Made by a program: the position numbers and the translations under genes. A stretch of 64,000 nucleotides of DNA from Candidatus Acidiferrales bacterium. GTDB lineage: Bacteria; Acidobacteriota; Terriglobia; Acidiferrales; 2-02-FULL-67-57. Of this stretch, positions 5,133-43,859 are shown one piece after another (position 1 is the first letter of the stretch; each line of letters begins with the position of its first letter). The DNA is taken from the NCBI GenBank assembly GCA_965247455.1, contig CBDFHE010000003.1, positions 3,332 to 67,331 on the forward strand, given 5' to 3'. The notes beneath the pieces were generated by a model that saw only the letters and a list, made by a program, of their open reading frames with translations, searched no databases and was not told where the DNA came from.

Positions 5133-5744
5133 ATGGCACCGCGCTCCGCGCCGCCCCTCGGCCCCCGCAAGCACGTCCGCCGTAGCTTGATTGTCAGTCC
5201 CGGCTTTCAACTGCGCGCCCTGCTGCCCCTGCTCACCTTTTTGGTTGTGGCGACGGCGCTGCTGGCGGCGGGGCTCTTCTATCCGCTTCAGCAGCGAGCG
5301 GCGCACGAGCCGGATCTGCGCGTCCGCACTCTCCTGCACGAGCAGCTCGTGCAGGTGCACGAGCGCCTATGACCGCTGCTGCTGGCGGCTGGGCTGGGAG
5401 CCTCCTACCTCGTCCTGCGCCATTCCGGTCGGGTGGCCGGCGCCCTCTACCATCTCCACCTCTATCTCAACCAGTTGGCCGAAGGCGACTACCAGCCCCT
5501 GCGCCTGCGCAAGAAGGATGAGTTCCGCCTCTTCGAAGACGACGCCGCCAAGCTGGCCCAGAAAATGAAGCTGCTCGCCACCCGCAACCGCAACCTGTTC
5601 CTCAGCTTGCAAGGTGGCCTCCGCCATCTGGCCGGGCGCCTGGAGAAGGGCGAGGAAATTCCCCGCGCTGAGTTGGAGGAGCTGGTCACCACCATGCAAG
5701 AGCAGATTGCCAAAGCCCTCGACACGGCCCCGGCACGGAGGTAG
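5133..5744 (+). pseudogene. Two-TM HAMP-like membrane protein carrying an in-frame TGA at 5370-5372
   Basis: ORFs 5133-5372 and 5433-5744 are in the same frame. The frame stays open and protein-like across the TGA (..VHERL*PLLLAAGLGASYLVL.., a second TM helix). The stop lies 2 bp before the pilin-like gene. Confidence 0.55.
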
Positions 5745-5746
5745 CT

Positions 5747-6049
5747 ATGTTGGCTCTTGTTCGTTCCTGCCCGCGTCGCCGCGCAGCCGGCTTCGCCCTG
5801 CCCGAACTGATGTTGGTGCTGGCCATCATCATGGTGCTGGTTTCTCTCGCCGTCCCTCGCTACATGAGTTCCATCCAGGTGGCCGAGGAAGCCAAGGCCG
5901 CGCAGACCATGAAGGACATCCACACCGCCCAGGAAGCCTACCGCATCACCAACGGCGCCTACGCCCCCACCTTCGACCAATTGAAGAACACCACTCCGCT
6001 GGCGGGCGAGTTGATCTTCGAAGCCAAGCGCGTCGACGGCACTCCCTAA
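5747..6049 (+). CDS. Prepilin-type N-terminal cleavage/methylation domain protein (short type IV pilin/pseudopilin-like)
   Basis: Contains RRRAAG|FALPELMLVLAIIMVLVSLAVP, the classic G/F cleavage site with Glu at +5 and a hydrophobic helix. At 100 aa it is short for a pilin. Confidence 0.75.
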   Translation: MLALVRSCPRRRAAGFALPELMLVLAIIMVLVSLAVPRYMSSIQVAEEAKAAQTMKDIHTAQEAYRITNGAYAPTFDQLKNTTPLAGELIFEAKRVDGTP

Positions 6050-6190
6050 CCCTCTTTGGTGGGGCAGACCTGCCTCTCCAAGAGAGAAACAGTCCGGAAG
6101 AGGTGCCTGACTGCCCTGCCTACCGCAGGCAGGCGCAGGCAGGCTCGGCACCCGCTTTATCCGCAGTCGAGGGGTTTGTCCCGAAGGAAA
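6050..6190. repeat. GC-rich palindromic intergenic repeat cluster (REP-like)
   Basis: Motifs gccctgcctaccgcaggcaggc and ggggcagacctgcc. The same motifs recur at 9609-9850, ~16270-16290, ~56715-56750 and ~62500-62540. Confidence 0.6.
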
Positions 6191-6453
6191 ATAAGGGAAC
6201 CAGAGCCGAAGGGTTTCCGCCCGTAGGGCAAAGAAACAAGTAGCCGGGCTGTCCCCTCTGGCGGTCCTAGTGTTTTCACTCCCCAGCTTGAGCTATGCAA
6301 TTCGGGCCAGCTCTGCCTTCGCCCGGAGGTTGGCTGCGCTTCGGCGGCCGGGTCCAGTCGCAACCAGGTTTCTTATTTTGTTCTTATTTTTCGTTCTAGG
6401 CTTCACAAACAATATCTAGTGTGATAGGGAAATGTTAACTAAAGGAGGTTGGG

Positions 6454-7027
6454 ATGAAACAATATCGCGCGGTTTCGCTCCGCCGAAGGGCTGCTGCTCT
6501 TTGCGCTGGCTATTCTGCTTGTGGCTTGTGGCGGCTACCTCACTTCGGGTCCCCCGTTGGATTCCGGTTCCGGCTCCGGCACTGGCTCTACCCCCGGCTC
6601 GGGCCCTGCCACCGGCTCGGGTTCGGTGGCCCTGTTCGTGCGAGATGCGCCCATGGAAGAGTTGGTGGAGTTCGAAATCATCGTCACGGACGTGATCTTC
6701 GACCCCGGCACCGTCTCGGTTCTCTCCCAGCCGATTCGGCTGGAGCTGACCGGCCTCCAGCTCACCAGCGAAATCATCCACCTGGCGCTGCAAAGCGTTC
6801 CCGCAGGTCTCTATACCAGCGTCACCGTCATGCTTCTCGACCCCAAGATCAGATTTTGTCCCGATCCCCCGGCTAGTTGCACGGACCAGAACGTGCTAAA
6901 CATCGTGCTGGCGGTGAACCCTTCCAAATCCACCTCCACCATCAACTTCGGCGTTACCTCCGGCCAGGTGACCGCCTTGTTGCTCGATTTCGACCTGCGC
7001 GCCATGGTCGTGACCGATACCATGAAT
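6454..7027 (+). pseudogene. DUF4382-like lipoprotein, 5-prime fragment (start-proximal frameshift, then IS insertion)
   Basis: Strong SD (aaaggagg) with ATG at 6454 in frame 1. The lipobox LLLFALAILLVAC|GG and the rest of the ORF are in frame 2. The pattern VALFVRDAP...VTDVIF...LPAGLYTSV resembles DUF4382 proteins. The ORF is cut at 7027 by the IS. Confidence 0.6.
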
Positions 7028-34381: not shown

Positions 34382-35344
34382 ATGAAAGTCCTTTTCTGTG
34401 GAACACCGGAGTTTGCCGTGCCCACGCTCGAGGCTATTCACGGCGCGGGGCACTCCCTCCTTGCCGTGGTGACCCAACCCGACCGGCCCCGCGGGCGGGG
34501 AATGAAATTGGCGGCACCGCCGGTAAAAGCGGCGGCGGAGAAACTTGGCCTCACGGTCGAGCAGCCGGAAAAACTGCGCGGCCAAGCGGGGCAAAAGCTG
34601 CTGCAAAGCTACCGCCCGGAGGTGGTGGTGATTGTCGGCTACGGGCAGATTATTCCCGCCGATCTGTTGACCTTGCCGCCGCAGGGTTGGATCAACTTGC
34701 ACGCGTCCTTGCTGCCCAAGTATCGCGGCGCCGCCCCGGTGCAGTGGGCGCTCATCCGCGGGGAAACCCGGACCGGCGTGACCACCATGCAGATTGACCA
34801 GGGCATGGACACCGGCCCGGTCTTACTCCAACAGGAAGTTTCCATCGGCCCCGAAGACACCAGCGTGACGCTGGCAGAGCGGCTGGCAGGGATGGGCGCA
34901 GACCTGATGCTGCGCACGCTGGCCGGGCTTGCGCAAGGCAGCCTGGCGCCGCGCCCGCAGGATCACTCCCAGGCTTCCAAGGCTCCGCTGCTCAAGAAAG
35001 AAGACGGTCGGGTGAGTTGGTCCTGGACGGCGGAGGAGATTTACAACCGCATCCGCGGCCTGCTGCCCTGGCCCGGCGCCTACACCGGTTTTCGTGGGCA
35101 GGTGTTGCGCTTGTGGTGGGCGCGGCCGGTGGCGGCGCCGGCGGGCGTGGTCACCACACCCGCGCCGGGAACCTTGCTGGTGGAAAAGCACGAGTTGTAT
35201 GTGGCGTGTTCTCCCGATGCGACGGGGGAGGGAACCTGGCTCCGCCTGAAAGAAGTCCAGTTGGCGGGTCGCAAGCGCGTGGCGGCGGCGGACTTCATCA
35301 ACGGCCTGCACGTGAAGAGCGGGGAAAAGCTAGAAACCACCTAG
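34382..35344 (+). CDS. fmt: Methionyl-tRNA formyltransferase
   Basis: MKVLFCGTPEFAVPTL.., NLHASLLPKYRGAAP and the position immediately downstream of def. Confidence 0.9.
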   Translation: MKVLFCGTPEFAVPTLEAIHGAGHSLLAVVTQPDRPRGRGMKLAAPPVKAAAEKLGLTVEQPEKLRGQAGQKLLQSYRPEVVVIVGYGQIIPADLLTLPPQGWINLHASLLPKYRGAAPVQWALIRGETRTGVTTMQIDQGMDTGPVLLQQEVSIGPEDTSVTLAERLAGMGADLMLRTLAGLAQGSLAPRPQDHSQASKAPLLKKEDGRVSWSWTAEEIYNRIRGLLPWPGAYTGFRGQVLRLWWARPVAAPAGVVTTPAPGTLLVEKHELYVACSPDATGEGTWLRLKEVQLAGRKRVAAADFINGLHVKSGEKLETT

Positions 35345-35492
35345 CGCCACAATAACGGCTTCTGGGTTCGGCAACCAGAGGCCCTTCCTGCTGTCTCGAA
35401 AACCTTGAGTTAACCGCGCCCCCAATTGTTTGATAGAGCGCTGCTTGGGTACCCCAACTCCAGTGTGTGAAAACCACAACGTTCCGGCACAG
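35271..35492 (+). repeat. Direct repeat copy A (last ~24 fmt codons plus ~150 bp downstream)
   Basis: Colinear without indels with 42026-42247. Roughly 10 mismatches in the first ~200 bp by eye, degenerating over the last ~20 bp. Confidence 0.85.
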
Positions 35493-35752
35493 ACCTCTGG
35501 TTTGGGCAATCAGAGATCATCCTGTCCCGGCTTAGTGCAACCAAGTGTAGTTACCGGCTACATCCTTGCATCTTTTTGACCTTACAGAGTCTGGCGGCTG
35601 CGGCCGACTCCCAGGAGGGGTACATAAGTTGTTGATCCATCGAAGCTTATTCTTTCGGAAAAAAGAGCCTAAAGTCCAGAGTTGGAAGGCCAAATGCTGC
35701 GAACATCACATAGGGGAGGGGTTTATCTTCACTCTAGAATTGGAGGGCATCT

Positions 35753-36358
35753 ATGAAACGGATAGTTTTTCTGTTGGTTGTGTCGTTGTTCGCTTTGCCT
35801 GCAACAGATAGTTTCGCAAAAACAAAACTCACCAAGGCCAAGACAAAAGCGCAGCGCTTGGTGGACAAACAATTGGACCGCATCACCGCCGGGAGTACCC
35901 ACGTGAATGAGGCTTCGGACGCGAGCGGGGGCGCCATCGTCGGAAACTCCTCTACGGCAAGCATCAAGAAGACGGGGAACGTAGAACTGGACGGTGGAGC
36001 CCAGCAAGATGCCCGGGCCCTCAACTTGGTGAACGCAGCCGAGAGCGGCGTGGCCAATGGCGTCAACGTGTGGGACGGGCGCCTGGACAGCCAAACCGCA
36101 GAAACCGAACTCAACGTCAATCAGGAAAACCTCATCCTTCAGAACCAAGCTCGCTCGGCCAGTGTGCCGGAGTATGTGCGGCCTGAAGCCAATGTGGATG
36201 AGACGTTCAATTCAACGCGGGACACAACCAATACAGGAAGTGTCAACACTCTCATCGCGATTCTCGGCCAAGAAATCCGAGCCGGGAAGGGCTTCGCGGG
36301 AGCGGGGTCGATCGGCCTGGACATTGATGGCGGGAGCATCGAGGTCACGAACGACTTA
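35753..36358 (+). pseudogene. Secreted repeat-motif protein P1, 5-prime fragment (IS-interrupted)
   Basis: A signal peptide, then the LVDKQLDRITAG motif. It is a paralogue of 38559-39590 and is cut after ..IEVTNDL by the IS. Confidence 0.75.
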
Positions 36359-38029
36359 ACCCGGATTTCCGATTTGGCTGTGGTACCGTATCGCCAGGAC
36401 CAGTCGCTGCGCCTTGAGTTTTGGGGCTCCGACGTAAGGAACCACACTACGGAGGGTGACACCCGGTGGGTGAATTACAACACGAGCCATTCCAGTTCGC
36501 GTTCAACGGCTTCTTGAAAGTCGCGTTCCAGGGATCGCGCGTCACTTCTGACGCTGGCCTCATTCTGGTGCGCGAGTTGGATGAACGTCTGGGGCTGGAG
36601 ACACTCATCGCCGAGCACCTGAGCGATTCCCGACAGGGGATGAACACCCAGTTCAGCGTGGTGGATCTCCTGCGGCAGTCGGTCTACAGTCGCCTCGCGG
36701 GCTACGAAGATCTCAACGACGCGGGGCGCGTGTCGGCAGACCCAACATTTCGTCTCATCGGGTCGCCAAAGCGCTGGGACCGGGGTGCGGCGCTGACATC
36801 GACGCTGCATTGGTTCGAGACAGAGCTGCTGACCCACGAGGAGAATCTCGTCGGGTTGAGGGCCGTGAACCGGGAGGTGCTTGCACAGGCCGAGATGGCG
36901 ACGCGCGCCGACCGGATCGTGCTCGACATGGATTCGAGCGAGAGCCCGGTGCATGGGGCGCAGGAAGGGAGCGCCTATAACGGGCACTTCGAGTCCGTCT
37001 GCTACCACCCGCTGTTTCTGTTCACCGAGCATGGGGACTGCCTCGCCGCCACGCTGCGGCCAGGCAACGTGCATAGCGCCGACGACTGGGACGACCTGCT
37101 CGTACCGGAGATTGACCGGCAGCAGGTGGAGGGCAAGCGCGTAGCGTTCCGCGCAGACGCCGCGTTCGCGAAGCCCGAGATCTACGACGCGCTCGAGCAG
37201 CGCGACGTGGACTATGCCATTCGCATGCCGGCGAACAAGAGCTTGGAGCTGGAAATCGAAGACATCCTCTTTCGTCCGCCGGGACGGCCGAGCTGCAAGC
37301 CCTTGGTGCGCTACCAGAGTTTCCGCTATCAGGCCAAGAGCTGGACCACGCCCAGACGGATCGTCGCCAAGGTGGAGCACCACCAAGGTGAGCTGTTCCC
37401 TCGCGTCGGCTTCATCGTGACCAACACGGCCCTCCCGAGCCGCTCGGTCGTGCGGTTTTACAACAAGCGCGGTACGGCGGAGCAATGGATCAAGGAAGGC
37501 AAGCAGGCCACCCACTGGACGCGGCTGTCGTGCCATCGTTTCCGGGCGAACGAGGTGCGCCTGCAACTGAGCGTCCTGGCCTACAATCTGGGCAACTTGT
37601 GGCGCAGACTGGTCCTTCCGCTGCGGGTCAAGCGCTGGTCGCTCACGAGTCTCCAGCAGCGACTGGTGAAAACTGGGGGCCGGCTGGTGAAGCATGCGCG
37701 GTACTACTGGCTTCTGCTGGCGGAAGGGCATCTCACGCGGCGGCTGTTCGGCGACATGCTGCGGAGGATCTGGGCGCTACCCGTGCCGGCAGGCTGACGC
37801 GCGGCCTGAAGTGCAACGAAGCCCGCCCGGCGATGACACGGGGCACACGTGTGGAGCGGTGTCTGAGAAATGCCCGAAAAGCAGGGGTTCCAGTCGGTCG
37901 CACGTCGGCGCGGGCTCAGATGAAGGCCTTTGAAGCTGAACGATTGTGCGACGATCGAAGTTTTTGTGCGATCGGCGGCGATCGGGTGTATAAACGTGCC
38001 ATCAGGGGCAGGCAAAACGGAAATCCCGG
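36359..38029 (+). mobile_element. IS1380-family-like insertion sequence, copy 2 (1671 bp, 4 bp target duplication CTTA)
   Basis: Same length and ends as copy 1, with at least 3 nucleotide differences seen. CTTA is present at 36355-36358 and 38030-38033. Confidence 0.85.
36466..37797 (+). CDS. DDE transposase, IS1380-family-like
   Basis: 443 aa, with one residue different from the 7260-8591 copy. Confidence 0.85.
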   Translation: MGELQHEPFQFAFNGFLKVAFQGSRVTSDAGLILVRELDERLGLETLIAEHLSDSRQGMNTQFSVVDLLRQSVYSRLAGYEDLNDAGRVSADPTFRLIGSPKRWDRGAALTSTLHWFETELLTHEENLVGLRAVNREVLAQAEMATRADRIVLDMDSSESPVHGAQEGSAYNGHFESVCYHPLFLFTEHGDCLAATLRPGNVHSADDWDDLLVPEIDRQQVEGKRVAFRADAAFAKPEIYDALEQRDVDYAIRMPANKSLELEIEDILFRPPGRPSCKPLVRYQSFRYQAKSWTTPRRIVAKVEHHQGELFPRVGFIVTNTALPSRSVVRFYNKRGTAEQWIKEGKQATHWTRLSCHRFRANEVRLQLSVLAYNLGNLWRRLVLPLRVKRWSLTSLQQRLVKTGGRLVKHARYYWLLLAEGHLTRRLFGDMLRRIWALPVPAG

Positions 38030-38492
38030 CTTAAGTGTTTCCGTGTCTGCCGAGGCAGGCGCTGACATCGGGTTTGGGCTCATCAGCGGGGGTGTGGAGA
38101 TAACCGCCGACGCAACCACTAGCCAAACTTTGACCTGGATCCTGCCGGACCTGAGCTTTACTGCTGATGGTGTGATATGTGCTGTGGCCATGGGATCCTG
38201 CGATTCGGAGGGGACCGACAGCAGCACATCCAGCGGCACTCTAAGCGTGCGGTCGCCTTTTGCGCTCTATGGTGCTCAAGGCGAGTACATCGTGGTGGAC
38301 GACTCCGAGCTCGAAGTTGAAACCGATTACTCCGTGCTCCTCACTAGCAACGCACAGCAGAACGTGCGGGCGCTGAACCTGGTCAATGCCGCCGGAAGCG
38401 TGGTGGCAAACGCCGTTAACGTGTCCCGGACGCCGACGGTGGGCCCGGTCCTGAACCTGACACAGAGCAATGTGATCATCCAGCGGCGCTAA
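38030..38492 (+). pseudogene. Secreted repeat-motif protein P1, 3-prime fragment
   Basis: After removing the IS and one CTTA copy, ..TNDL joins SVSVSAEAGADIG.. in frame, giving a 354 aa product. The C-terminus aligns with that of P2. Confidence 0.75.
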
Positions 38493-38558
38493 AACCAGCT
38501 TCCCCGAAGGGGGCTGGAGAAGATCGCAGCCGCCGGCACACGGCGGCAATCGCAAAGG

Positions 38559-39590
38559 ATGATCATGCGAAGTGTCTACCTCTTGGTCGGCGCTTTGGTC
38601 CTGGCGCACGGCGGGCAGGCTTTCGGGCAGTCGCGTCCTCTGACCGATGTCCAGATGGCCCGCATCACCGCCGGGCATACCGAAGCAGGCGGTGAAAGGC
38701 GCAGCGGCGTCATTGTTGGGAACTCCTCGACCGCGACGTTGCGGCCCACCGCCATCATTGACCTCAAGGGCTCGGCTCAGAAGGGGAGCCGAGCCCTGAA
38801 CATGGTCAATTCCGCCCAGAGCAGCGTAGCCAACGGGATAAACGTGTGGGATGGGAGGCTGGCGGGGATGGCTGCCGAGGCCCAGTTCAACGTCGGTCAG
38901 GCGAACCTCGTGTTCCAGGACCAGCGCCGCTCCTCCCACCTGGGCGAGTGGAAGCTGGAAGGAATCAATCTGGATGAATCCTTCCAGCAGACCCGCTCGA
39001 TCACTTCTCAAGCCCAGGTAGTTCCCGCATTCTTGCTGACAACCATCCCAATCGGGGTGGGGTTTGCGGGCGCGGGCACGTTTACTGCCGACATTGGTGC
39101 CGGAGCAGTTAGCATCGACTCCGTCATCAGCACCACGGTTACAACCACGGAAGAAAGCTGCGTCTTTTTCGGGACAATCTGCCACACAGACACGGAATCA
39201 GAAACGCGCACGGAAACAGTTACGGGGAGTGTGAGTTTACCCCCTATTTCCATGCAGGTTGTGGACGGCTCGGCGTGCCTGGTCGTCTTCGGGACATGCT
39301 CGATCACCGCATCCCTCTCCAGCACTTCGGAGGGGAGCCGGACGATTCTCGTCCCGGCCAGCATGACCGAGGCCGAAGCCGAATACATTGTGATGAGCGA
39401 TGGAACGCTGGATGTCGAGACGGACTATTCTGTGCTCCTCTCGGACTTCGCCCAGGAAGACATCCGAGTCTTGAATGGAGTGAATGCGGCCGGCAGCGTG
39501 GTGGCGAACGCCGTGAACGTCTCGCGGGCAGGAACGATGAGCTCAGTTCTCAACCTAACGCAACGCAACTTTATCACTCAGCGCCAATGA
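38559..39590 (+). CDS. Secreted repeat-motif protein P2 (candidate substrate/fibre subunit)
   Basis: 343 aa. Signal peptide ..HGGQAFG, then LTDVQMARITAG. The motifs ALNMVNSAQSSVANGINVWDG (N-terminal) and LNGVNAAGSVVANAVNVSR (C-terminal) flank a Thr/Ser-rich core containing two C-x6-C pairs. Confidence 0.75.
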   Translation: MIMRSVYLLVGALVLAHGGQAFGQSRPLTDVQMARITAGHTEAGGERRSGVIVGNSSTATLRPTAIIDLKGSAQKGSRALNMVNSAQSSVANGINVWDGRLAGMAAEAQFNVGQANLVFQDQRRSSHLGEWKLEGINLDESFQQTRSITSQAQVVPAFLLTTIPIGVGFAGAGTFTADIGAGAVSIDSVISTTVTTTEESCVFFGTICHTDTESETRTETVTGSVSLPPISMQVVDGSACLVVFGTCSITASLSSTSEGSRTILVPASMTEAEAEYIVMSDGTLDVETDYSVLLSDFAQEDIRVLNGVNAAGSVVANAVNVSRAGTMSSVLNLTQRNFITQRQ

Positions 39591-39622
39591 TCAGAGATTC
39601 CTGGCAGAAAATGAGGTGAATC

Positions 39623-40024
39623 ATGAAACGCATTCTTCTTCTCTCCCTGGCAGGCTTACTGCTCTTCGGAGCGGTGAGCCCGGCCGGGGCGGAGGGACGC
39701 AAACTCAGTGACGAGGAGTTGGACCAGGTCACCGCCGCCGGGGTTTGGACCGAGGTGGTGGACGGCGTGGTCAGGTTTCATTTCGAAGGCCGCGCCGGGC
39801 GCTCCCACACCGTAAATGGCAGCGGAACCATCGAGCTGCTGGAGGCGGAGCTTCCGCCCAGCGCCGCCATCCTCATCCTGCGCGACAACGCTCAAGGGAA
39901 TCTGCGTTCTCTCATCAACGTCAACGCGGTCAATTCTCTCATCCAGGTGCTCGTCAATCTGAACATCAACATCAACTCCACCGTCGGCAGCGTGCAGCAG
40001 ATCAACCTGTCAAAAGAGTTCTAG
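39623..40024 (+). CDS. Small secreted paralogue P3 (candidate minor subunit/nucleator)
   Basis: 133 aa. Signal peptide ..SPAGA, then LSDEELDQVTAAG. The C-terminus is Asn/Val/Leu-rich (LRSLINVNAVNSLIQVLVNLNININSTVGSVQQINLS). Confidence 0.7.
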   Translation: MKRILLLSLAGLLLFGAVSPAGAEGRKLSDEELDQVTAAGVWTEVVDGVVRFHFEGRAGRSHTVNGSGTIELLEAELPPSAAILILRDNAQGNLRSLINVNAVNSLIQVLVNLNININSTVGSVQQINLSKEF

Positions 40025-40026
40025 CT

Positions 40027-40725
40027 GTGAGAAACTGCTGCCCCGCCATTCTAGCGCTCGCACCGGTGCTCGCTCTGGCCGGAGCATCCCCGGCCTCGGC
40101 GCAGCGCCTGCCCCTCAGCTTGGGCGGGGTCAGAGCCACTACGGCTGTCCAATCCTTGCAGGAGATCCGTCAGGCCCGCATCGTGCGTCAGCGCTGGGAC
40201 CTCAGTTGCGGGTCGGCGGCGTTGAGCACGCTTTTGACCTATGACCTTAGCGACCCCACACCCGAGACCGCGGTAGTGGTTTGGGTGCTGCACCGGACCG
40301 ACCCGGTGCGCGTCCGATCCCGGGGAGGGTTTTCCCTCCTGGACCTAAAGCGGTTTGTCCAGTTTCGCGGGTACAACGCGGAAGGGTATGCCGACCTCAG
40401 TCTGGACGAACTGGCGGGGCTGGGTGGGGCGGCCATCGTCCCGATCCGGATCAAAAGCTACGACCACTTTGTGGTGTTTCGTGGTGTGATGGGCGGCCGA
40501 GTGATCCTGGCCGACCCGACTTTCGGCAATTTGACCATGGCAGTGGAGCGGTTCCTCAAAATCTGGAAGAACGGCATCGGGTTCGTCGTGCTTCCCCGGA
40601 AGCCCTCTTCCGCTCCCGGCCAAGCGGCTGCGCGGGCCGAGAAATTACCCTTTCCCGACGTTGGCTCCATCTATCGGGGGCTGCGCGCAGGTGGCCTCGC
40701 TCCCCTGACTCGGCGGTCCCCCTAA
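40027..40725 (+). CDS. Standalone periplasmic C39-like cysteine peptidase
   Basis: GTG start 2 nt after the P3 stop, with signal peptide ..ALAGASPASA. Candidate catalytic residues are Cys in QRWDLSCGSAALSTLLTY and His/Asp in YDHFVVFRG...VILADP. There is no ABC transporter domain. Confidence 0.75.
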   Translation: MRNCCPAILALAPVLALAGASPASAQRLPLSLGGVRATTAVQSLQEIRQARIVRQRWDLSCGSAALSTLLTYDLSDPTPETAVVVWVLHRTDPVRVRSRGGFSLLDLKRFVQFRGYNAEGYADLSLDELAGLGGAAIVPIRIKSYDHFVVFRGVMGGRVILADPTFGNLTMAVERFLKIWKNGIGFVVLPRKPSSAPGQAAARAEKLPFPDVGSIYRGLRAGGLAPLTRRSP

Positions 40726-40728
40726 GAC

Positions 40729-41913
40729 ATGATTCGACGCTGGTCCAAAACGGAGAGTGTCTCGCGAGCGCTCATCCTTCTGCTTCTTCTCGCGGCCGGG
40801 ACCCCAGTGGTGCGCGCAGATGATCAAGATGACAAGATCAAAAAGCTCCGGGAAGCCTTGCAACAGCGTGACCAAGTGATTCTCGACCTCCTCCGGCGCG
40901 TGGAAGCGCTGGAGCGGAAAGTCCAAGGACTGAGCGCTTTTTCTACCTCTCCCACAACGGCGAAAGCCAGCAAACCTTCCGAACAAGACCCGGTGCCTCC
41001 CCGGGCGGGAGAGTACGACGAAGAGGAGCGGCTGGCCCAAGCCGCCTTGGAGCGCACCCTGATCCAAAAAGGCGGCCTGCTGCTGCCTCCTTGGACGCTC
41101 GAAATTGAGCAGAGTTTCACCTACTTCAATTCCTCGTCGGATGTCATCAGCATCGACGGGTTCGCGATTTTCCCGGTTCTGGTGGTGGGAGACATTGTCT
41201 CGGAGCGCGTGCGCCGCGACATTCTCCTGCCCGCCTTCACCACCCGGCTGGGTCTGCCGGGGAATTTCCAGTTTGACGTCCGGGTACCGGTCGGGTATGA
41301 GGTGGAACGAACCGTGACAGCGGACGAGCAAGAGCGAAAGCGGAGCATCTTTGCGTTAGGCGACATAGAGTTCGGGTTGTCCCGTCAACTCATGCGGCAG
41401 CGGGGAGCACGGCCCAACCTGCTGGCCGGCTTCCGCTGGAAAACCGTCACCGGGCCCGACCCGTTTGCCCTGGCCTCCACCACACCGGCGCCGGGAACCG
41501 GCTTCCGCAGTTGGCAGGCAACGTTGACGGCGGTCAAGGTGCGCGACCCGGTGGTGTTTTTCGGTGGCTTCTCCTACACCAACAACCTAGCTGCCAGCAA
41601 GCCGGTGGGCCGTATCAACCCCGGCAACTCGTGGGGGTACCAGCTTGGCTTGGCCCTGGCGCTGAACCTGGAGTCCTCCATCAGTTTCGGCTGGGATCAA
41701 CAGTTCGCCGGGCGGACGTCCCTGGACGGCGGTTCAGTACCCGGATCCTTTCTCTCCACGGGAACTTTCCGCGTGGGCAGTTCCTACGTGCTGGCGCCGG
41801 GACGCTCGGTGGATGTGGGCCTCGGGATCGGCCTCACCCGGGATGTTCCCGACTTTCAGTTTAGCTTTGCTTTGCCCTTCCGCTGGGTTCTGCGCTCGCG
41901 CGCCGCCCGCTAG
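40729..41913 (+). CDS. Outer-membrane protein with an N-terminal coiled coil, disordered linker and beta-barrel (FapF-like architecture)
   Basis: Signal peptide ..GTPVVRA, then heptad-like KIKKLREALQQRDQVILDLLRRVEALERKVQGL. This is followed by the S/T/P-rich linker and then amphipathic beta-strand patterns ending ..FQFSFALPFRW. Confidence 0.7.
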   Translation: MIRRWSKTESVSRALILLLLLAAGTPVVRADDQDDKIKKLREALQQRDQVILDLLRRVEALERKVQGLSAFSTSPTTAKASKPSEQDPVPPRAGEYDEEERLAQAALERTLIQKGGLLLPPWTLEIEQSFTYFNSSSDVISIDGFAIFPVLVVGDIVSERVRRDILLPAFTTRLGLPGNFQFDVRVPVGYEVERTVTADEQERKRSIFALGDIEFGLSRQLMRQRGARPNLLAGFRWKTVTGPDPFALASTTPAPGTGFRSWQATLTAVKVRDPVVFFGGFSYTNNLAASKPVGRINPGNSWGYQLGLALALNLESSISFGWDQQFAGRTSLDGGSVPGSFLSTGTFRVGSSYVLAPGRSVDVGLGIGLTRDVPDFQFSFALPFRWVLRSRAAR

Positions 41914-41915
41914 CA

Positions 41916-41937
41916 GTCTTTGGTCTCACACAAAGAC
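41916..41937 (+). terminator. Weak terminator-like hairpin after the OMP gene
   Basis: 7 bp stem gtctttg/caaagac with an 8 nt loop, 3 nt after the stop codon. There is no clear T-run. Confidence 0.3.
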
Positions 41938-42025
41938 CTCAGCACTTCTTTCAATCGACGCTCCACGAAGACAACCTCCGAGCTCCATTTCGGTTAGACC
42001 GTGCCGAAACCATTTCCTTTCTGGC

Positions 42026-42247
42026 GCAAGCGCGTGGCGGCGGCGGACTTTATCAACGGCCTGCACCTGAAGAGCGGGGAAAGGCTAGAAACCACCTAGC
42101 GCCACCATCACGGCCTCTGGGTTCGGCAACCAGAGGCCCTTCCTGCTGTCTCGAAAACCTTGAGTTAACCGCGCCCCCAATTGCTTGATAGAGCGCTGCT
42201 TGGGTACCCCAACTCTGGTGTGTGAAAACTACATGCCTTTGGCACAG
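42026..42247 (+). repeat. Direct repeat copy B (pseudo-3-prime end of fmt)
   Basis: Encodes ..RVAAADFINGLHLKSGERLETT*, compared with authentic ..RVAAADFINGLHVKSGEKLETT*. It then follows the same downstream sequence as copy A. Confidence 0.85.
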
Positions 42248-42464
42248 CGGTACGGAGATCCAGCGCGGGCTCACGCAGCCACTTGCTTGGCTACCCCAGG
42301 CCAGACAAGCCGAATCGGTCCCGCCGGGGAGGGCCACAATGACCGGAGGCAGGTCCACCACCGGTGCCCGCATCCGTGCTTCCTTCGCGACTCTTGCCAA
42401 ACCTCCTTGTAGGCTCAACCGCCCAGCCGTTTACAATCTACTGAAAAAGAAGCGAATATAGTTC

Positions 42465-42512
42465 TTGACAGCCACTCAGTTCATGGTAGTATATATTAGT
42501 CTAATAAGACTA
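42465..42512 (+). promoter_or_regulatory. Candidate promoter plus palindromic operator upstream of the ParB-like gene
   Basis: TTGACA at 42465-42470, with an AT-rich -10 candidate (tagtat/agtata) 16-17 nt downstream. The palindrome TAGTCT-aata-AGACTA lies at 42497-42512. Confidence 0.4.
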
Positions 42513-42535
42513 TATTAAACTATAAGAGACCAACA

Positions 42536-43573
42536 ATGACTAAGACAATCCAGGCCCCCGAGAAAACGAACGAACTCACCATCCGCATCGGCAACCGGGA
42601 CTTTGTGCTAGAGCGCAAACAGGTGCCTATTTCCTTCCTGAAGCTCGATCCTTCCAACCAGCGCCTTAGCTATCAACTGACCCAGCTCCGCAAGCAGGGT
42701 AAGGTCGGGACGGATGCGCAGCTTCATGAACTGCTCTGGTCCATGGACGCCGTCAAGGATCTCTACCAAAGTGTGCTCCGAAATGGCGGGCTGATGCACG
42801 ACCCTTTCCTCAAAAGTGAAGGCCTCGTAGTCGAAGGCAACTGCCGCACCGTTGTGCTCCGTGAGCTCCACAAGAAGTATCCAAAGGAAGAGCGGTTCGC
42901 AAAGGTCTATGTCCAGATTCTTCCGGGAAACTTTTCGGAGGAGCAGCTTGTTAAGCTCCTCGGTGAACTGCACATCGCAGGTAAGATCGAGTGGCGCGCC
43001 TATGAACGGGCAGAGTATGTCTGGAAGATGAACAAGCAGTTTGCGAAGACTTACGACTTTCTGACTGCTCACCTTCGGTGGCCGAGGGCCAAGATCGCTC
43101 AAAAAATTGCAGCCTATGAAGAAACCAATATCTACCTCGCGGAGACGGCTGATCCACAGGGTATCAACCGATTCTCACACTTCGAGGAATTCATGAAGAA
43201 GAAGGAACTCCGCGAGAAGCGGAGTAAAGACCCTCAATTCATGAAGAACTTTCGCAAGTGGGTATTCGTCGGGAAATTCCCGGACGCCAAGCATGTCAGA
43301 ATCTTCCCCGACGTTCTGGCTAACCAGCGCGCTATGAAGGAGTTCGAGCGCAAAGACATACGCACGGCCGAACGAGTATTGAACGAGACGGACCCCGCGA
43401 GGAGCTCTGACTACTATTGGAGCATGGCGCAAACCACGCAGCAACTTAGGAATACACCACTGTCGGAAGTGAACGACCTCAGGAACGGCAACGGTGCGAA
43501 GGTCGAAAAACTGCGCGATCTCTATCGTGCCCTACTGGACGTCGCTAAGACTGCGGGCGTATCCTTGAGCTAG
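42536..43573 (+). CDS. ParB/Srx-fold N-terminal domain protein (ParB-like nuclease/NTPase domain)
   Basis: ISFLKLDPSNQR and VVEGNCRTVVLREL resemble the ParB N-terminal box motifs. The gene is AT-richer than the surrounding core genes. Confidence 0.55.
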   Translation: MTKTIQAPEKTNELTIRIGNRDFVLERKQVPISFLKLDPSNQRLSYQLTQLRKQGKVGTDAQLHELLWSMDAVKDLYQSVLRNGGLMHDPFLKSEGLVVEGNCRTVVLRELHKKYPKEERFAKVYVQILPGNFSEEQLVKLLGELHIAGKIEWRAYERAEYVWKMNKQFAKTYDFLTAHLRWPRAKIAQKIAAYEETNIYLAETADPQGINRFSHFEEFMKKKELREKRSKDPQFMKNFRKWVFVGKFPDAKHVRIFPDVLANQRAMKEFERKDIRTAERVLNETDPARSSDYYWSMAQTTQQLRNTPLSEVNDLRNGNGAKVEKLRDLYRALLDVAKTAGVSLS

Positions 43574-43626
43574 TCGGCGATCATCTGCTCTCGGCTTTGC
43601 AGTACGCATGCCAGCACGGAGGCACC

Positions 43627-43859
43627 ATGGAAGATCGTATCATCGCTCGGTTGCGGAAGAGTGAAATCGAGGAGATCGTCATAGCTCTTCGCACGTATCA
43701 AGGGAATGAATTTGCGGATTTTCGCATCTTCTTCGGCGCACGTGGACAAGAGACACGGCCAACGAAGAAAGGATCACGATCCCCCTCGAACTATACAGCG
43801 AATTTCGTCGGTCCATAGAACTGCTGGACGGCGAAATGGCCAAGGAAGGTTGGTCCTAG
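43627..43859 (+). pseudogene. PC4/p15-like small ssDNA-binding protein with a 1-nt deletion near 43774
   Basis: MEDRIIARLRKSEIEEIVIALRTYQGNEFADFRIFF..RPTKKG, then in the -1 frame ITIPLELYSEFRRSIELLDGEMAKEGWS*. The span is 233 nt, one short of 78 codons. Confidence 0.5.

Follow-up and report, generated by a model that had tools for sequence, protein, structure and literature searches.

A candidate double-glycine-type leader behind a Sec-type signal in putative fibre subunits encoded next to a C39 peptidase and a FapF-type channel

Three paralogous genes for putative secreted fibre subunits (P1, P2 and P3) each encode, shortly after an ordinary signal-peptide-like segment, a second short signal resembling the double-glycine leaders of bacteriocins. 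In the loci examined this motif is always encoded next to a predicted periplasmic C39 peptidase and a FapF-type outer-membrane channel, making it a concrete candidate for the cleavage site of a protease class whose substrate is still undetermined. The genes were found in a 64,000-nucleotide stretch (the window) of a Candidatus Acidiferrales bacterium (GCA_965247455.1, contig CBDFHE010000003.1, positions 3,332 to 67,331 of the forward strand), where the region 35753-41913 carries five genes on the + strand. The 12-residue motifs read LVDKQLDRITAG in P1 (35858-35893), LTDVQMARITAG in P2 (38640-38675) and LSDEELDQVTAA in P3 (39704-39739, followed by Gly at 39740-39742), all in frame with their open reading frames. 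Each follows an N-terminal segment with a basic start, an uncharged hydrophobic core and a small-x-small site, namely MKRIVFLLVVSLFALPATDSFA before K in P1 (35753-35818), MIMRSVYLLVGALVLAHGGQAFG before Q in P2 (38559-38627) and MKRILLLSLAGLLLFGAVSPAGA before E in P3 (39623-39691), although these segments were judged by eye and by a hydrophobicity rule alone. A position-specific scoring matrix (PSSM) built from 92 distinct homologue motifs scored the three sites at 27.6, 23.5 and 36.2 bits, respectively, whereas the next best of 100,218 12-mers in all six frames of the window scored 2.3 bits, so that chance can be excluded. The original prediction, that a match to the bacteriocin and pheromone leader consensus directly follows the predicted signal-peptidase site in all three proteins, is therefore confirmed, with two corrections. 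Aligned with all relatives, the P3 motif is LSDEELDQVTAA plus a following G, one residue off the proposed register, and not a 13-residue motif ending in AAG; and P1 is not an intact gene.

P1 is split by an insertion sequence of about 1.67 kb. The 5′ part (35753-36361, +; residues 1-203), which holds the signal-peptide-like segment and the leader motif, and the 3′ part (38031-38492, +; residues about 202-354 of the intact protein), which ends in the Asn-rich C-terminal module, were recognized by mapping the intact orthologue P0003, residues 1-203 of which align at 96% identity to 35753-36361 and residues 202-354 at 95% identity to 38031-38489. The intervening element (36362-38030, +) has terminal inverted repeats of 21 nt (36360-36380 and 38009-38029; 86% complementary) and a DDE transposase gene at 36466-37797 (Pfam DDE_Tnp_1_4, E = 4.6e-117). 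P2 (38559-39590, +) is an intact protein of 343 amino acids and is 43% identical to P1. P3 (39623-40024, +) is a small subunit of 133 amino acids homologous to the N-terminal ~100 residues of P2, as shown by a profile-profile match between the two families (97.9% probability, E = 4e-13). No Pfam or NCBIfam family covered P1, P2 or P3, and a profile of the P3 family returned no match among PDB sequences at E up to 1. AlphaFold2 monomer models of P3 (75-sequence alignment) and P2 (16 sequences) were poor (mean pLDDT of 60.7 and 41.1, respectively), although both place a short helix at residues 30-35, inside the motif.

The gene adjacent to P3 (40027-40725, +; GTG start 2 nt after the P3 stop) encodes a stand-alone C39 cysteine peptidase of the FapD/FilB type, 232 residues long, with a signal-peptide-like N-terminus (40027-40101, ending ASPASA before Q). 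It passed the Pfam Peptidase_C39 threshold (PF03412; 40.4 bits against a cut-off of 22, E = 3.2e-10), and its nearest curated relatives in NCBIfam were FilB (7e-32) and FapD (1e-27), both below their cut-offs. The only PDB sequence match was LahT150, a double-glycine protease domain (6mpz), with the catalytic motifs aligned (QMEALECG, HFVV and DP of LahT150). Gln55 (40189-40191), Cys61 (40207-40209), His147 (40465-40467) and Asp163 (40513-40515) are invariant in 21 relatives, all of which have a hydrophobic N-terminus. No ABC exporter is encoded in the operon. The next gene (40729-41913, +; 3 nt after the preceding stop) encodes a FapF homologue of 394 amino acids, with a signal peptide, a predicted periplasmic coiled coil (about residues 31-80, supported by weak Pfam matches to coiled-coil families), a linker and then a beta-barrel; it matched NCBIfam FapF at 1.4e-28 over model positions 30-418 of 420, and the FapF crystal structures 5o65, 5o67 and 5o68 at E = 1e-23. 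A scan for promoters and terminators over 35300-42600 gave counts at the level of shuffled sequence and was uninformative; the operon structure rests on the 2- to 3-nt gaps between P3, the peptidase and the channel.

The motif is under selection, with 134 of 135 homologues carrying it and the single exception being a truncated fragment. In a 16-sequence alignment of P2 with its 15 database homologues (30-45% identity, apart from two near-identical sequences), L28 (-12) and A38 (-2) are invariant and G39 (-1) nearly so, while the signal peptide and the following linker vary. The P3 family comprised 275 hits, and nearly all of the 120 listed carry the block. Across 151 distinct segments from 81 genomic loci, information content was 2.4-4.2 bits at -12, -10, -7, -6, -4, -3, -2 and -1, against mostly 0.5-1.3 bits in both flanks (up to 2.3 just upstream and 1.75 at +1). 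Residue frequencies were L/M/I 100% at -12, D 96% at -10, L/M 100% at -7, D 90% at -6, V/I 97% at -4, T 97% at -3, A 99% at -2 and G/A 98% at -1 (Gly 56%, Ala 42%), giving the consensus [LM]-[STN]-D-x-x-[LM]-D-x-[VI]-T-A-[GA]. The pair before the predicted cut is Ala-Gly or Ala-Ala rather than Gly-Gly.

To establish whether motif and peptidase occur together, one genome per species was scanned, which returned 322 relatives of the peptidase, and 80 loci were retrieved from Acidobacteriota, Geobacter and other deltaproteobacterial lineages, Syntrophobacteraceae, and Gammaproteobacteria including Ectothiorhodospira and Marinobacter (cultured hosts of P2 or P3 homologues include Edaphobacter aggregans DSM 19364, Granulicella, Tunturiibacter, Marinobacter iranensis and Ectothiorhodospira haloalkaliphila). 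The operon plan recurs as one or two large subunits, a P3-like protein of about 135 amino acids, the peptidase and then the channel, again with a stand-alone peptidase and no ABC exporter. Motif hits of at least 15 bits numbered 146 among the 970 ORFs in the 7 kb upstream of the C39 gene on the same strand, against 6 among 4,433 other ORFs; those 6 are adjacent upstream genes misfiled by crude ORF boundaries. In the 81 loci, all 152 motif-bearing ORFs lie directly upstream of such a peptidase and none lies elsewhere, and all 152 have an uncharged hydrophobic stretch upstream of the motif, which begins a median of 11.5 residues after it. In six further lookups that started from the substrate side, a C39 gene or its remnant was adjacent in all six.

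The conserved positions agree with published recognition by C39 domains of ABC exporters, for which the consensus is Leu(-12)-x3-Glu(-8)-Leu(-7) before Gly-Gly. In a co-crystal with the ligand Ac-NLSDDELEGVAGG (PMC6363468), the residues at -12, -7 and -4 sit in the hydrophobic groove of the protease, residues -4 to -11 form a two-turn helix, and charged substitutions at -4, -7 or -12 block cleavage. P3 (LSDEELDQVTAA) is identical to that ligand at -12, -11, -10, -8, -7 and -4, and the three groove positions are the most conserved hydrophobic positions of the block. However, Ala replaces the Gly that is the most constant residue of classical leaders at -2, Glu(-8) is poorly kept (Q 41%, A 32%, E 9%), and D(-10), D(-6) and T(-3) are additional fixed positions. 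Scanning the isolated leader segments (25-27 residues) against NCBIfam and Pfam at E up to 10 gave no hits, although segments this short fall below the HMMER filters and the absence says nothing either way.

The locus is best explained as a Fap/Fil-like extracellular fibre secretion operon whose Asn-rich subunits carry a two-part N-terminal signal, a reading we hold with reasonable though not high confidence. In this view, a Sec-type signal peptide takes the precursor across the inner membrane and is removed by signal peptidase I, leaving a propeptide about 16-25 residues long (16, 16 and 25 in the three proteins of the window). The 12-residue block at the C-terminal end of that propeptide would then form a short amphipathic helix, the -12, -7 and -4 side chains of which would dock into the groove of the C39 peptidase as double-glycine leaders do in ABC-exporter C39 domains, and the enzyme would cut after the Ala-Gly or Ala-Ala pair. 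By analogy with FapD and FapF only, cleavage may license passage of the unfolded subunit through the FapF-type channel or its assembly outside the cell. What the analysis itself establishes is the motif and its conservation, its position behind signal-like segments, an apparently active and exported C39 enzyme and a FapF-type channel in the same operon, strict genomic linkage, and a positional match to a solved leader-protease complex; removal of the signal peptide, docking and cleavage of the leader in the periplasm, and any role of that cut in export or assembly are inferred. The exact scissile bond is uncertain by one residue, because FilA-like relatives have Q, E, K or R at -1, which is hard to fit into a narrow S1 pocket and may mean that the cut lies one residue earlier. 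The proposal in the original prediction of two-step maturation, by signal peptidase and then by C39 cleavage after A-G, is supported: of the conditions set beforehand as able to overturn it, a lack of conservation among homologues and a catalytically dead peptidase were both examined and neither was found. Its further suggestion that this step gates secretion or polymerization rests on analogy with FapD, whose catalytic Cys is needed for FapC secretion (PMC5557850), and the residue at -2 is Ala, not the Gly of the leader consensus with which it matched the motif.

Three other explanations were considered, each of them unlikely. The motif might be a docking or targeting signal that is bound but not cut and remains on the mature subunit, recognized either by the C39 protein acting as a chaperone, like the inactive C39-like domains of RTX exporters, or by the periplasmic coiled coil of the FapF-type channel. 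Some C39-like domains do work as substrate chaperones without cleaving (PMC5557850, PMC6173800), and the absence of Gly-Gly and the residues at -1 in FilA-like relatives would be compatible with this. However, Gln, Cys, His and Asp are invariant in this peptidase family, while chaperone-only C39-like domains generally lack the catalytic Cys; the FapD Cys38Ala mutation abolishes secretion (PMC5557850); and invariant small residues at -2 and -1 are what a cleavage site needs but are not needed for helix docking. It is also possible (although slightly less likely still) that the hydrophobic segment is an uncleaved signal anchor and that the C39 peptidase alone frees the subunit from the inner membrane. 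The signal peptidase sites were only judged by eye, the short distance from hydrophobic core to motif would place the cut close to the membrane, within reach of a periplasmic enzyme, and the enzyme appears to be lipid-anchored in some alphaproteobacterial relatives; against this, P1, P2 and P3 all have typical small-x-small sites 4-13 residues before the motif (SFA before K, AFG before Q and AGA before E, the predicted P3 propeptide then beginning EGRK and ending VTAA), and the cores of about 12-15 residues have the length of a signal peptide rather than a membrane anchor. Least likely, the block could be a structural part of the mature subunit, such as an N-terminal helix or strand for subunit contacts, simply inherited among paralogues whose mature fold the poor models leave undefined, but inheritance was rejected as the sole explanation because the block is kept in register in proteins otherwise unrelated in length and sequence (subunits of about 100, 350 and 550 residues, FilA of DUF6160, and FapE-like proteins), always follows a signal peptide and lies next to a C39 gene, matches protease-contact positions, and is separated from the conserved core by a variable linker. 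A second signal peptidase I site at V-T-A was also rejected, as the block is preceded by a charged helix and not by a hydrophobic core.

Of known systems, the functional amyloid system of Pseudomonas (FapA-F) shares the gene pair of a signal-peptide-bearing peptidase (FapD, a periplasmic C39 peptidase) and a channel with an N-terminal coiled coil (FapF, a trimeric outer-membrane channel), Sec-exported, Asn/Gln-rich substrates that are poorly structured as monomers, and proteolysis presumed necessary for secretion. However, P1, P2 and P3 gave no FapB, FapC or FapE hit at E up to 0.1, whereas a true Fap-like locus from Aeromonas did hit FapC (1e-50) and FapE (2e-12); there is no FapA and no gene between peptidase and channel; and the channel and peptidase scored 99.9 bits against an equivalog cut-off of 700 (FapF) and 96.5 bits against 330 (FapD; 1.4e-27), far below the cut-offs despite clear homology of the channel to FapF over nearly the full model. 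Here every subunit carries the leader, whereas in Pseudomonas only FapE appears to be processed; FapE is the only Fap protein whose N-terminus (about 70 residues) is missing from peptide data. Fap proteins have been stated to lack canonical C39 sequences. Proteins at the FapE position carry related motifs after a signal peptide, reading ITDYELATMRGG or LSEEVLARQRGG in Polymorphobacter and Croceicoccus and LADGELAHLRGR in an Aeromonas FapE homologue, and a Deinococcus neighbour of a C39 gene has LSDEELDGVTGE. In the Fil fimbria system of Acinetobacter (FilA-F; FilB as C39 peptidase, FilC as FapF-like channel), A. baumannii FilA reads signal peptide, then MDDAALSAATGQ, then DGINIG in the same register (MA, then MQSMDDAALSAATGQ, then DGINIG), with Gly-Gln at -2/-1 where the present system has Ala-Gly; the mature N-terminus of FilA was determined by Edman degradation according to PMC3498257. 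P1-P3 gave no DUF6160 or FilA hit, the peptidase scored 110.9 bits against the FilB cut-off of 475 and the channel 45.2 against the FilC cut-off of 630, while the A. baumannii locus passed all three cut-offs; the Fil operon also adds a FadL-like protein, FilE and FilF.

Double-glycine leaders of class II bacteriocins, competence pheromones and NHLP/prochlorosin precursors, cut by the C39 domain of PCAT/AMS ABC exporters (ComA, LahT), share the spacing of hydrophobic residues, small residues at -2 and -1, a helical recognition element, and the protease family with its catalytic residues. Those leaders have Gly at -2 and Gly, Ala or Ser at -1, sit at the very N-terminus of a cytoplasmic precursor and are cut on the cytoplasmic face during ABC export, whereas here the leader follows a Sec-type signal peptide, the enzyme is a predicted free periplasmic protein, no ABC exporter is present, and the cargo consists of 100- to 600-residue putative fibre subunits. 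Curli (CsgA/B with the CsgG channel) and type V pili of Bacteroidota offer an analogy only, being Sec-exported subunits that cross a dedicated outer-membrane channel and polymerize outside, with removal of an N-terminal segment by a protease triggering polymerization in type V pili. No sequence relationship to either was found, curli is not known to involve a protease step, and type V pilins are lipoproteins cut by Arg-specific proteases.

It has been known since 2017 that FapD must be catalytically active for amyloid secretion in Pseudomonas, yet its substrate is called undetermined (PMC5557850, PMC6173800, PMC12822426), with reviews up to 2025 describing it only as “thought to be” FapE or FapF and no recognition sequence defined. 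Co-localized fapD-fapF pairs have been noted in five further phyla, and no description of their substrates or of this motif was found in the literature searched. The relatives studied here carry in every subunit a motif that aligns position by position with a leader co-crystallized with a C39 protease, which makes the question directly testable with a purified enzyme and a synthetic peptide such as EGRKLSDEELDQVTAAGVWTEV or QSRPLTDVQMARITAGHTEAGG. It also suggests that double-glycine leader recognition, so far a cytoplasmic event coupled to ABC export, has been re-used in the periplasm behind a Sec signal. The broadest reading, which we consider about as likely as not, is that such a two-part signal is the general entry ticket for FapD/FapF- and FilB/FilC-type fibre secretion, in which case the motif would be the long-sought recognition and cleavage site of periplasmic C39 peptidases, and the acidobacterial, deltaproteobacterial and gammaproteobacterial P2/P3 proteins would be a previously undescribed, widespread family of secreted fibre or amyloid subunits all matured in this way. 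The analysis also flags uncharacterized secreted-fibre subunit families of a few hundred clusters (305 and 275 hits), next to a peptidase found in at least 322 species genomes, in soil Acidobacteriota, Geobacter and marine Gammaproteobacteria.

The operon is bracketed by direct repeats of ~210 bp that include the 3′ end of fmt (35268-35478 upstream and 42023-42233 downstream, both +; about 95% identical). In a 99.7%-identical sister contig (L092) the insertion sequence is absent and P1 is intact, but most of the peptidase gene and the channel have been lost to IS3-type elements.

P1 is split by an insertion sequence at positions 36362-38030 of the window, which carries a DDE_Tnp_1_4 transposase gene and 21-nt inverted repeats, and P1 is therefore a pseudogene in this genome. 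In contrast, P1 is intact in a 99.7%-identical sister contig (L092). In that near-identical sister genome, however, the peptidase gene is cut off after about residue 67, and the rest of it, the channel gene and a 345-aa ORF are replaced by IS3-type transposase genes (L092 7460-10200, corresponding to window 40226-43833). Two near-identical genomes therefore carry different IS lesions in the same locus. In the window, the 345-aa ORF lies just downstream of the operon (42536-43573) and has no Pfam match. The whole P1-to-channel operon is bracketed by direct repeats of about 210 bp (window 35268-35478 and 42023-42233; about 95% identical), with the upstream copy containing the last ∼77 nt of fmt, an arrangement that looks like a cassette insertion scar or a substrate for excision by recombination.

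Within P2 (window 38559-39590), two Cys residues at positions 240 and 247, in a G-x-C-x-V-x-x-G-x-C context, are invariant across the P2 family and may form a disulfide. The family also shows an internal duplication of the Asn-rich module (A-Q...L-N-x-V-N-x-A-x-S-x-V-A-N-x-x-N-V) near both ends. One P3 homologue (locus L089, 5001-5620) looked like an orphan, with no called C39 gene beside it, but was found to be followed by a remnant matching peptidase residues 32-72 at 68% identity, and the linkage therefore holds there too.

In the Acinetobacter baumannii locus (L083), FilA (5646-6515; Pfam DUF6160) has a signal peptide followed by MDDAALSAATGQ, in register with the motif studied here and next to the C39 peptidase FilB; the mature N-terminus of FilA was reportedly determined by Edman degradation. 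In three further related loci, genes between the C39 peptidase and the FapF-like channel, i.e., at the FapE position (L086 6600-7283, L085 6576-7292 and L087 6587-7234), encode a signal peptide followed by a leader ending in RGG or RGR. In Polymorphobacter and Croceicoccus this leader is canonical (ITDYELATMRGG and LSEEVLARQRGG), while the Aeromonas protein matches the NCBIfam FapE model (2e-12). In the alphaproteobacterial relatives L085 (5875-6579) and L086 (5935-6603), the C39 peptidase has a lipobox-like N-terminus (LLLGGC and LLPGC), suggesting a lipid-anchored enzyme rather than a soluble one.
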